From Escherichia coli (GTDB lineage Bacteria; Pseudomonadota; Gammaproteobacteria; Enterobacterales; Enterobacteriaceae), in the NCBI RefSeq assembly GCF_022846255.1, contig NZ_AP025682.1: a stretch of 64,000 nt of DNA; one strand, given 5' to 3'. Position numbers: made by a program. Positions 46,501 through 49,500 of the stretch are shown here, piece after piece; within the stretch, counting starts at the first letter, position 1, and each line of letters opens with the position of its first letter.

Positions 46501-49500
46501 CGAGAACGACGCCAGAGCCCTGTTTGAGTTTACTTCCGGCGTGAATGTTACTGAATCCCCGATCATCTATCGCGACGAAAGTATGCGCACCGCCTGCTCT
46601 CCCGATGGTTTATGCAGTGACGGCAATGGCCTTGAGCTGAAATGCCCGTTTACCTCCCGGGATTTCATGAAGTTCCGGCTCGGTGGTTTCGAGGCCATAA
46701 AATCGGCTTACATGGCCCAGGTGCAGTACAGCATGTGGGTGACGCGAAAAGATGCCTGGTACTTTGCCAACTATGACCCGCGTATGAAGCGTGAAGGCCT
46801 GCATTATGTCGTGATTGAGCAGAATGAAAAGTACATGGCGAATTTTGACGAGATGGTGCCGGAGTTCATCGAAAAAATGGACGTGGCACTGGCTGAAATT
46901 GGTTTTGTATTTGGGGAGCAATGGCGATGAAGCATCCTCACGATAATATCCGGGTAGGCGCGATCACTTTCGTCTACTCCGTTACAAAGCGAGGCTGGGT
47001 ATTTCCCGGCCTTTCTGTTATCCGAAATCCCCTGAAAGCACAGCGGCTGGCTGAGGAGATAAATAATAAACGGGGAGCTGTATGCACAAAGCATCTCCCG
47101 TTGAGTTAAGAACGAGTATCGAGATGGCACATAGCCTCGCTCAAATTGGAGTCAGGTTTGTGCCAATACCAGTAGAAACAGACGAAGAATTTCATACGTT
47201 AGCCGCATCCCTTTCACAAAAGCTGGAAATGATGGTGGCGAAAGCAGAAGCAGATGAGAGAGACCAGGTATGACAACCACTGAATGCATTTTTCTGGCAG
47301 CGGGCTTCATATTCTGTGTGCTTATGCTTGCCGACATGGGGCTTGTTCAGTGACACCTCAGCAAGAAAACGCCCTTCGCAGCATTGCCCGTCAGGCTAAT
47401 TCTGAAATCAAAAAAGCCAGACAGCAGTTTCCGGATAAAAACGTCGATGACATTTGCCGTAGCGTACTGAAGAAGCACCGCGAAACGGTAACGCTGATGG
47501 GATTCACACCGACTCATTTAAGCCTTGCGATCGGCATGTTGAACGGCGTCTTTAAGGAACGGTGAACATGAAAAGCAAAATCATCAGGGAGCTACAGGCT
47601 CCTTTTTTATTATTCGCATTTACCCTCAAGCGTATTAACCAACAATTCAGGGATTAATGAAAGATGGCGGACATCATTGATTCAGTATCAGAAATTGAAG
47701 AATTACAGCGCAATACAGCAATAAAAATGCGTCGTCTGAACCACCAGACTATATCTGCCACTCATTGTTGTGAGTGTGGCGATCCGATAGATGAACTAAG
47801 ACGTCTGGCCGTTCAGGGTTGTCGGACTTGTGCAAGTTGCCAGGAAGATCTGGAGCTTATCAGTAAACAGAGAGGTTCGAAGTGAGCGAAATTAACTCTC
47901 AGGCACTGCGTGAAGCGGCGGAACGTGCAATTCCAGCAATGGAACGCCTGTTAATGTTGCCAGCTGATGATGATTTGTTAAGTGAACAGGAACTTAAAGA
48001 TTACGGTGTGGATATTGATGCGCTCAACGCCTTCAAATTTCTGGCCGGACCAGAAACCGTGCTGGCACTGCGCCGTCAGGAAGTTTTTTAGTACGATCAA
48101 TGGTTAACTCAACTCTCATGATTCCCTCCTCATTGATTTACTGTGTGAATATACAGTTACTTTATAAACCTCTCATTTGGATTTTGCAATGTTTTAAGGG
48201 CACGAATTGCGAATAACCCTATACAAAAAAACCCGCCGAAGCGGGTCTTATCTTTCATTAATGCTTAGTCCTTACAGGAAAAGACCAGCATTTATATCCG
48301 TATGCGTGTGCATCCAAAACTCGGCGCTCTGAGTCAGGCGTCCCAGCTTTAGCTCGCGCCCTGCGATAACGACATTTTACCCAGCGGAAACCATCCGGAA
48401 GTTTTTTGGTAGGAATTTCTTTCAAAGCCATAAATAAACCTCGTTCCAGGCGAGCACTTCCCTGAAACTTGATAAAAATATGGGGATCCGCTAATGTACT
48501 GTTGTTGACGCAGTACTGATTGCGGGTGCTCTAACATCCCCAATCCGAGCCCTTCCCCGGCAAAGGAAGGGCTCAAATTCTTATGAAGGCTTCACATACG
48601 CCTTCAAAATCGACATAATACGCTCAGCTTCTTCCATCGTGATGTTGGTAGGCAACCCCTGAACTGTAATCATTGCCCCTGTTTCAGGTCGAACAACGAT
48701 CGGTAAATTGAAAGTCTGCACTTTCTCATGTCTTGCAGCTTTAGCTTTCTCCATCTTCTGCTCCACCGCATCAAACCCATCTAAATTTCCTTCGGTGTCT
48801 GCCAAGTTGACTAAAGTCCCCACTCGCGTGTACTCCTCAAACTTATTGACAGCACTTTTAAACCGGCTTCGATAATTATGAATGGTGGATTCACTGGGCT
48901 TGTTTGCCTGAGTTTCAGCATAACGAGTAATGAGGTCTTCAACGTTCAGGTCGCGCACATCATCGTTGTCACTCGTGTCGACCACAGATAACAGCAGCAA
49001 CGCAGAATTTTTTAAGTTGCGAGCTGTTGCTTCGTTGATCAGCCCCAAGTTAGGCAACTTCATAAGAAAATCGAAGAATGCTTGCGTTGAGTAATTATCG
49101 TTCATAAGCATCTCTCATTGTTATCCATAGGTGTAGTGTAGATTCAGAGGTTTTACCGATCAATGTTTTTTTTATCGATCGATCAATCTTTTTTTAAATC
49201 TAACCAATCCCACCCACTTAAAAACACTCAACAACATTTCACCCCCTCAGAAACAAAATAAAATAAACTATATAAAACAACAAAATACACAGATCTATAA
49301 AACAGACAACCGCCCCCGCCTCCCCCACCCCATACTGAATTTAGATACAGCCTTAGTTAATCAACCTTCGTTCACCAGAGCAGCACATATGCCTTCGGAC
49401 TTTTTAGTTAAGCCACAAATGGCAGTTTGCACAGTTCTGGTAGATTTGCCCTTACCAGAGCCTCCGCGAATTGTGGAGGTACGGCATTTCCGCATCTGGC

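Follow-up and report, generated by a model that had tools for sequence, protein, structure and literature searches.

A conserved cassette in a replaceable segment of a lambda-like prophage

The 64,000-nt stretch of the Escherichia coli chromosome analysed here (contig NZ_AP025682.1, hereafter the window) carries a lambda-like prophage that adjoins torS, the torS side sharing 98.8% identity with strain E2348/69. The + strand carries gam, bet and exo, as well as a TraR/DksA-like gene, xis (51037-51255) and int (51233-52306), so the early-left operon reads from left to right; antiparallel to it, between the exo-side genes and xis/int, runs an open-reading frame (ORF) at 48581-49111 (- strand). 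An earlier note on this DNA had described this ORF as an orphan gene forming a unit by itself, and had suggested a moron expressed in the lysogen. We found that it belongs to a conserved cassette of ca. 1.1 kb (49352-48228, - strand) which comprises a promoter, a gene for a protein with a predicted recombinase-type core-binding (CB) fold, a structured RNA spacer, a gene for a 57-aa protein and a terminator (Table 1), the spacer and the 57-aa partner gene having been overlooked in the single-gene description. The cassette is best classed as an autonomous operon of prophage cargo that has a dedicated regulator, and the libraries and literature searched contain no description of it as a whole.

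Loci in other genera are similar at the DNA level only across about 49298-48223, and in all related loci the terminator marks the 3' limit of the similarity. Compared locally with its 97%-identical counterpart in E. coli WAT, the prophage loses similarity at 47931 and regains it at 50570, which places the 174-aa CB gene inside a 2.6-kb replaceable cargo segment (47932-50569); this segment is exchanged for other genes in E. coli WAT and in further prophages, with flanks that are 97–98% identical. The cassette DNA had no match by megablast/blastn in 50,697 phage records or in 5,426 complete E. coli genomes, and proteins sharing 99–100% identity were found on two metagenome contigs, the same gene arrangement being visible on one of these. 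The cassette is thereby present in some prophages and absent from close relatives, is placed between conserved genes, and at the sequence level has its own predicted promoter upstream and its own terminator downstream. The variable position and autonomy first ascribed to the gene are upheld by the replaceable segment, by the conserved promoter and the terminator, and by the several prophage slots in which the cassette occurs (see below). Its anatomy and distribution (promoter, terminator, variable slot) likewise fit the moron idea, which needs correction in one respect, as the unit is not a single gene.

Table 1 Features of the cassette in the window.
Feature	Position	Strand	Details
LexA-box-like palindrome	49333..49352	.	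TACTGAATTTAGATACAGCC (+ strand), 15/20 to consensus, CTG-N10-CAG; cassette 5' edge
Two 16-nt direct repeats with three GATC	49157..49195	-	AAAAAAAsATTGATCG, 23 bp apart; candidate operator and UP-like A-tracts
Sigma-70-type promoter, predicted	49135..49163	-	-35 TTGATC 49163-49158, 17-bp spacer, -10 TACACT 49140-49135; predicted start near 49128
Gene, 174-aa protein plus stop	48581..49105	-	CB fold, linker, beta-beta-alpha; GAGAG ribosome-binding site 49116-49112
155-nt structured spacer	48429..48584	-	H1, H2, H3; covariation
H1	48578-48543 (core 48574-48547)	-	Directly after the CB stop codon
H2, long composite stem	48542-48481	-	Followed by U-rich run 48480-48472 (AUAUUUUUAU)
H3	48464-48447	-	Just ahead of the small-ORF ribosome-binding site
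Gene, 57-aa basic protein	48258..48431	-	pI 10.35; motif CR[FY]R...LLDAHxYGYKxW; PHROG 33859
Intrinsic terminator	48228..48249	-	AAGACCCGCTTCGGCGGGTTTT then TTTGTATAGG; closes the cassette

A predicted recombinase core-binding fold without a catalytic domain

The ORF encodes 176 aa if its first ATG is used, as had been assumed, but the protein is likely 174 aa long from the third codon. Judging by the sequence, the true start is almost certainly the ATG of that codon (49105), which has GAGAG 6 nt upstream and at which the called homologues of 172–175 aa begin. The gene is also far from an orphan: its product matches PHROG 2602 (E 5e-66), the family comprises 262 clusters at 50% identity, a 44%-identical protein is found in 50 phage records, mostly Shiga toxin (Stx) phages, and copies with 62–90% identity occur in Salmonella, Citrobacter, Enterobacter, Klebsiella, Cronobacter and Atlantibacter. 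A genome scan with a narrower protein alignment returned six loci. The literature searched yielded nothing of relevance on the Stx-phage protein, PHROG 2602, DUF5343 or defence systems with a CB domain.

The absence of a recognisable domain, as first reported, holds for the 174-aa sequence, for which Pfam, NCBIfam and PADLOC were empty, but not for the predicted structure. In PADLOC-DB 2.0 the 174-aa protein, the 57-aa protein and two neighbouring ORFs were all matchless even at E ≤ 1, and profiles of the whole CB family, of the C-terminal domain and of the small protein found nothing significant among PDB sequences. The remote-homology and structure check that the earlier note had proposed found a recombinase core-binding fold: an AlphaFold model drawing on 149 relatives (predicted local distance difference test, pLDDT, 84) comprises four helices (residues 7–95), a disordered linker (102–127) and a beta-beta-alpha unit (131–169), and the latter folds confidently by itself (pLDDT 92). 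The predicted fold of the N-terminal half matches the CB domains of integrases and Xer, such that, by prediction, the protein has the N-terminal core-binding (SAM-like) helical domain of tyrosine recombinases. Weak Pfam Phage_int_SAM matches were obtained for 10 of the 149 relatives, and relatives in AFDB carry the name “Core-binding (CB) domain-containing protein”. The catalytic domain of tyrosine recombinases, with its R-K-H-R-H/W-Y active site, is absent from the 174-aa protein, which therefore cannot be a recombinase.

A protein of this kind might still serve recombination as an accessory, by binding core-type att or other recombinase sites and modulating how its own phage or a competitor integrates or excises. 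The likeness of the fold to integrase and Xer CB domains would suit this role, as would the position of xis/int 2 kb away in the window, but no relation to the resident integrase is detectable in the sequence, the nin region that houses the gene in most loci is far from int, and the conserved partner is a small basic protein and no recombinase. Distant relatives of the CB protein (about 25–30% identity) are moreover chromosomal, in ordinary contexts, and we regard an accessory role in recombination as very improbable.

At positions 870-2396 of one such locus (L065, a contig of 67% GC) a 25%-identical CB relative is followed, 19 nt on, by a gene whose product opens with a TIR-like motif (FISYSRGD...). 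From this single case, a link between the CB-protein family and immune-type effectors is possible.

A conserved promoter with clustered GATC sites

Upstream of the CB gene, the three GATC sites, the two shorter repeats and the candidate -35 that had drawn attention to this promoter were all recovered, with GATC at 49158, 49177 and 49181 (a span of 27 bp), CGATCAAT at 49157-49164 and 49180-49187, and TTGATC 17 bp ahead of TACACT (Table 1). The repeat is longer than first noted, with two copies of the 16-nt CGATCAATSTTTTTTT, of which 0.16 copies are expected by chance (≤2 mismatches) and two copies were reached in 1 of 100 shuffles. A generic promoter scan missed the TTGATC/TACACT pair, which by our count has 8 of 12 consensus matches against a threshold of 9. 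Among 37 distinct upstream regions, TTGAT(C/T)-17/18-TAnAcT is present in 31 and starts there 57–62 nt before the start codon, the versions of Vibrio, Rahnella and Erwinia being among them. GATC-bearing repeats are kept in homologous loci down to 38–44% protein identity, whilst the promoter layout and the GATC enrichment hold down to about 30%. Between -120 and -20, GATC occurs 2.2 times per 100 nt against the 0.33 that the loci themselves lead one to expect (6.6-fold, 40 distinct upstream regions), an enrichment drawn from related upstream sequences and hence not readable as a probability. This conservation across homologous upstream regions supports the view that the clustered GATC sites are functional-looking, rather than due to chance.

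The placement of the sites varies between loci: GATC is found in the -35, beside the -10 or just upstream, and here one lies in the -35 and two lie 15–22 bp upstream of it. They usually occur inside longer lineage-specific repeats or palindromes, such as the perfect TTCATCGATCGATGAA in L036, and in L057 a 16-bp inverted repeat is present (AGCCGATCATCAAGTT/AACTTGATGATCGGCT). Lineage-specific GATC palindromes of this sort resemble what would be expected of an operator evolving in step with a DNA-binding protein of its own.

Alternatively, the GATC sites may be read by the host, with methylation in or beside the -35, or SeqA on hemimethylated pairs, setting the activity of the promoter and coupling expression to replication or to incoming unmethylated DNA, either alone or atop a repressor. 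Gamma-proteobacteria are known to carry Dam, and every identified host of the cassette is gamma-proteobacterial. Control by Dam/SeqA would also be in keeping with three sites in 27 bp, one of them within the -35, with the 6.6-fold enrichment over 40 distinct upstream regions, and with the retention of GATC even as its position moves among the -35, the spacer by the -10 and upstream sites; in L066, a relative from a GATC-poor genome, the promoter is a plain TTGACA/TATATT with no GATC. However, the full cassette of L067 retains a repeated ATTGAT with zero GATC in its 200-nt upstream region, the sites lie mostly in longer lineage-specific YGATCR-type palindromes, as the operator of a protein would show, and inspection by eye turned up no OxyR- or Lrp-like site. 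We consider such control possible but doubtful, and it would not exclude the other readings discussed here.

LexA-like boxes (≥13/20 matches with CTG-N10-CAG) were found in 13 of 40 distinct upstream regions, compared to 0.06 per 400 nt in the background. Several related loci have a box at a place equivalent to that in the window, in L055, L056 and L061 it lies between the -10 and the ribosome-binding site, and other related lineages have it at other positions. Their recurrence suggests that DNA damage may act as an inducer in some lineages at least, which complicates the idea of constitutive expression in the lysogen. A further candidate in the spacer, GTACTG-N9-CAGTAC, was rejected as a LexA box owing to its spacing of 9 rather than 10.

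Two other features were observed in the leader. A fourth GATC (49292-49295, within ATAGATCT) precedes the start codon by about 185 nt, and its position is kept in many cassette copies, in an AT-rich leader that is otherwise poorly conserved. Between the LexA-like box and the promoter, a G-run tract (49308-49331, GGGGTGGGGGAGGCGGGGGCGG on the - strand, GC skew -0.30) is found only in this leader and in a near-identical metagenome copy, related loci having unrelated AT-rich sequence there.

A structured RNA spacer precedes a conserved micro-protein gene

In all cassette loci the gap between the CB gene and the 57-aa gene is a structured 150–165 nt, and the spacer is conserved more than coding DNA. 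RNAalifold recovered H1 and the outer H2 stems with compensatory changes, and a covariance model built from 23 sequences located the RNA element in 30 distinct loci, including a Pantoea locus outside the training set (80 bits). In the model alignment both sides had changed in 22 of 35 pairs, and 91% of cells were paired, against 31–45% with the partners slid (0 of 500 shuffles reached the observed values), figures that are somewhat inflated as the alignment was fitted to the covariance model. On the gene strand, G-U pairs numbered 67 and A-C pairs 36, an excess which provides a modest argument for a sense-strand RNA. No Rfam 15 family matched the spacer above its gathering threshold, the best being RsmY (22 bits vs 57) and isrK (21 vs 50), both terminator-driven. 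An overlapping 75-aa ORF (48349-48576, - strand) was rejected as a gene: its frame is broken in relatives and its substitutions are compensatory for RNA pairing.

Substitutions in the 57-aa ORF, by comparison, are mostly synonymous. The encoded protein is hydrophilic, has no match in Pfam, NCBIfam, PADLOC or the PDB, and is encoded about 155 nt downstream of the CB gene in nearly all loci, those of Rahnella, Proteus, Erwinia and Vibrio included. It shares 68–91% identity (47% in Vibrio) where its CB partner drops to 29–39%. Searching IMG/VR with the small protein gave 34 loci, in 32 of which the CB gene is present at the same spacing of ca. 155 nt, whilst a profile search gave 93 clusters of relatives, all unnamed, of 36–94 aa and mostly 42–57 aa. 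Gene callers often miss the small gene.

Distant relatives of the small protein have a different upstream partner. In L063, L064, L068, L069 and L070, integrative elements of other phyla with a GC content ranging from 28% to 64%, homologues of 40–48 aa are encoded about 165–180 nt downstream of pairs of XRE helix-turn-helix (HTH) and Peptidase_M78 genes; the CB protein therefore takes the place of a damage-responsive regulator ahead of the same payload. (One of the XRE and M78 loci adjoins an AAA_21 and RloB pair.) Around H3 in the cassette, CUCG...CGAG(G) is predicted to be able to pair with the ribosome-binding site, and in the XRE-M78 class a CUCC...GGAGG hairpin, conserved in three loci, likewise pairs with it. 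Together, these hairpins point to a possible gating of translation.

The two-gene layout is reminiscent of a toxin-antitoxin or abortive-infection pair, in which an acidic, DNA-binding 174-aa antitoxin would bind a basic 57-aa toxin through its C-terminal domain and repress the operon. The charges of the two products (pI 5.1 upstream and 10.35 downstream) are consistent with such a pair, as are the palindromic and direct repeats over the promoter, the mobility of the unit among prophages and the greater spread of identity in the upstream partner (29–90%) than in the downstream one (47–91%); in addition, the CB gene is found alone, whilst the small gene was never found without an upstream regulator. 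We nevertheless think this unlikely. The genes neither abut nor overlap and are parted by the conserved 155-nt structured RNA, neither protein matches a toxin-antitoxin or defence family in Pfam, NCBIfam, PADLOC or PDB sequences, and in other phyla the small protein is paired with XRE and M78 regulators unrelated to the CB protein, a swap which fits transcriptional control better than a dedicated protein antidote.

The cassette occupies several prophage slots

The cassette was found in at least four different prophage slots: the nin region, the interval between cI and N (“rex”), the prophage end and, in the window, the ea/b region. Most close relatives occupy the part of the nin region that separates the replication genes from Q, where they read in the direction of the early-right operon, have flanking gaps of about 100–600 bp and are often followed by dinI. 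A Proteus prophage carries the full cassette between its cI-like repressor gene and an N-like gene, the place that rexAB occupies in lambda; this position, with the cassette co-oriented with the repressor, is no more than suggestive of expression from the repressed prophage. In Rahnella the cassette is at the prophage end, adjoining a tail-fibre assembly gene. Between cI and N of Stx1 and Stx2 phages, namely VT2-Sakai (L001, 9877-10398) and about 49 further records, the 44%-identical CB gene is annotated as orf22, “hypothetical protein”; it has a terminator-like hairpin with a T-run upstream and a promoter-like TTGCAT...GATAAACT, as recognised by eye.

The preponderance of nin-region copies also allows that these are ordinary early lytic genes with no role in the lysogen, of which the copy in the window is a passenger stranded by an illegitimate exchange from the nin to the ea/b region. 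The co-orientation of most close relatives with the early-right operon would agree with this, as would the truncated cytosine methyltransferase and the 19 dinI codons on the same island, which are typical nin neighbours. Yet the copy in the window has both frames, its RNA, its promoter and its terminator intact, and proteins of 99–100% identity occur on two independent metagenome contigs; even within nin regions the cassette retains its own promoter and terminator, and the cI-N slot and the prophage end are also occupied. An origin as lytic genes stranded in this way appears distinctly unlikely to us.

The neighbouring genes of the island include several remnants. An ORF at 49408-49995 (- strand) corresponds to the C-terminal half alone of a cytosine-5 DNA methyltransferase (positions 214–393 of 400 in PHROG 23072); the GNAVPP motif is kept, and the ORF is a truncated remnant, because the N-terminal catalytic motifs are gone. 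A Salmonella-type prophage (L004) has a nin-region gene for a 658-aa methylase, with the 3' part of which the remnant shares 71% DNA identity. On the other side of the cassette, a dinI remnant (48059-48158, - strand) has a good LexA box (AACTGTATATTCACACAGTA, 48158-48139), a ribosome-binding site, an ATG at 48119 and the first 19 DinI codons, before its frame breaks off at the island junction with a truncated ea22-like ORF (47882-48091, + strand); its SOS promoter, if active, would fire antisense into the early-left operon. Finally, an 8-bp unit, CAAGACAT, is repeated 7.5 times at 50096-50155 (+ strand) within a 96-aa ORF (50066-50356; PHROG 7123, unknown function), and as a change of one unit shifts the reading frame it looks like a slippage-prone contingency repeat.

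A proposed regulator, RNA gate and payload

The reading we favour, to which we would give a little less than an even chance, is that the CB protein represses its own promoter through the repeats, that the RNA holds the micro-protein down, and that a signal such as DNA damage releases the micro-protein, which is the payload. The CB protein would probably dimerise via its C-terminal beta-beta-alpha domain and repress its own promoter by binding the pair of ATTGATCG repeats over the -35. The level of the small protein may be kept low by the spacer RNA through two routes, as H2 with its U-run is terminator-like and sequence around H3 is predicted to pair with the ribosome-binding site. Output would climb under a signal, most likely DNA damage, and the 57-aa protein would then be the payload, probably acting on nucleic acid; it might serve to exclude other phages, act in a toxin-like way or assist during induction.

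Several observations weigh against this account of self-repression and release, in which the DNA binding, the autoregulation, the function of the RNA and the role of the small protein are all inferred. With a pI of 5.1 the CB protein is acidic, an unusual property in a regulator that binds DNA, and its C-terminal domain has no informative structural match. Comparison of the 149-sequence family profile with E. coli K-12 FliZ (discussed below) using hhalign gave a probability of 1.5% over 19 columns, and a profile comparison with the resident integrase was not significant. The LexA-like box in the window is about 170 bp upstream of the -35 and not over the promoter. The CB gene of Stx phages stands alone, without the RNA element and the small ORF, and that of Pantoea L026 similarly lacks the RNA and the small gene, so the CB protein can serve a purpose independent of them. 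Lastly, as the cassette shares its island with the truncated methyltransferase and dinI, it may be a passenger of rearrangement that was not selected at this site.

A broader possibility, rather speculative at present, is that the cassette belongs to an undescribed class of damage- or infection-responsive effectors, in which a micro-protein of ca. 40–57 aa with RNA-gated translation is combined with interchangeable sensor-regulators and is toxin-like or anti-phage on release. The regulators would be the CB protein in enterobacterial and Vibrio prophages and the XRE and M78 pairs in other phyla.

Self-regulated prophage cargo genes are the source of many exclusion, toxin and host-modulating functions. 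Here, an anonymous “hypothetical protein”, which is also found beside cI in Shiga-toxin phages, becomes a defined and testable unit with a mapped (predicted) promoter/operator, a regulator of recognisable fold, a covarying RNA motif with no counterpart in Rfam and a micro-protein that is widely conserved. Should the latter prove to be an effector, a compact regulator-RNA-peptide design would be added to the systems carried by prophages.

Comparison with known systems

Lambdoid morons, described by Hendrix and colleagues, are autonomous promoter-gene-terminator units, for example rexAB, lom and bor. The cassette resembles them in having its own promoter and terminator, in its presence or absence between near-identical prophages and in its use of classical slots, including that downstream of cI; no known moron family, however, brings together a protein with a CB fold, a structured RNA and a basic protein of 57 aa. 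Clustered GATC sites also mark Dam-regulated promoters such as IS10 pIN, agn43, Mu mom and P22 gtr, which share with the cassette the presence of several GATC in or beside the core promoter of a horizontally acquired gene. The cassette differs from these in that its GATC sites lie in lineage-specific palindromes resembling a dedicated operator, with no OxyR or Lrp site recognised.

The XRE and M78 pairs directly upstream of the distant homologues of the 57-aa protein resemble ImmR/ImmA and CapH/CapP, the latter being an XRE/M78 pair that turns on immune operons after DNA damage (bioRxiv 10.1101/2022.04.27.489752). The CB protein, in contrast, has neither an HTH nor a peptidase domain, and the cargo of CapH/CapP consists of large, recognised immune systems. 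Prophage repressors with an integrase fold are represented by MrpR (YopR) of SPbeta and SroF of phi3T (PMC10516654; bioRxiv 10.1101/2025.11.27.690993). These are proteins of about 320 aa with the entire two-domain integrase fold, of which the 174-aa protein retains the CB domain alone, and they are master repressors of their own phages, whereas the prophage in the window has a separate immunity region and the CB gene is found in cargo slots.

A further comparison is with FliZ, a 183-aa global regulator of E. coli and Salmonella with an integrase core-binding-like DNA-binding region (PMC3367168). FliZ and the 174-aa protein are of similar length and both have a CB-type helical domain without a catalytic domain, the binding of promoters being a property of FliZ that is presumed for the 174-aa protein. 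They differ in that the CB-like part of FliZ is C-terminal, whilst that of the 174-aa protein is N-terminal and followed by the beta-beta-alpha domain, and in that FliZ is encoded by a chromosomal gene of the flagellar regulon rather than by a mobile prophage cassette that also specifies an RNA and a micro-protein. The CB protein would provide a second case, after FliZ, in which the DNA-binding domain of a recombinase has been reused alone as a regulator.

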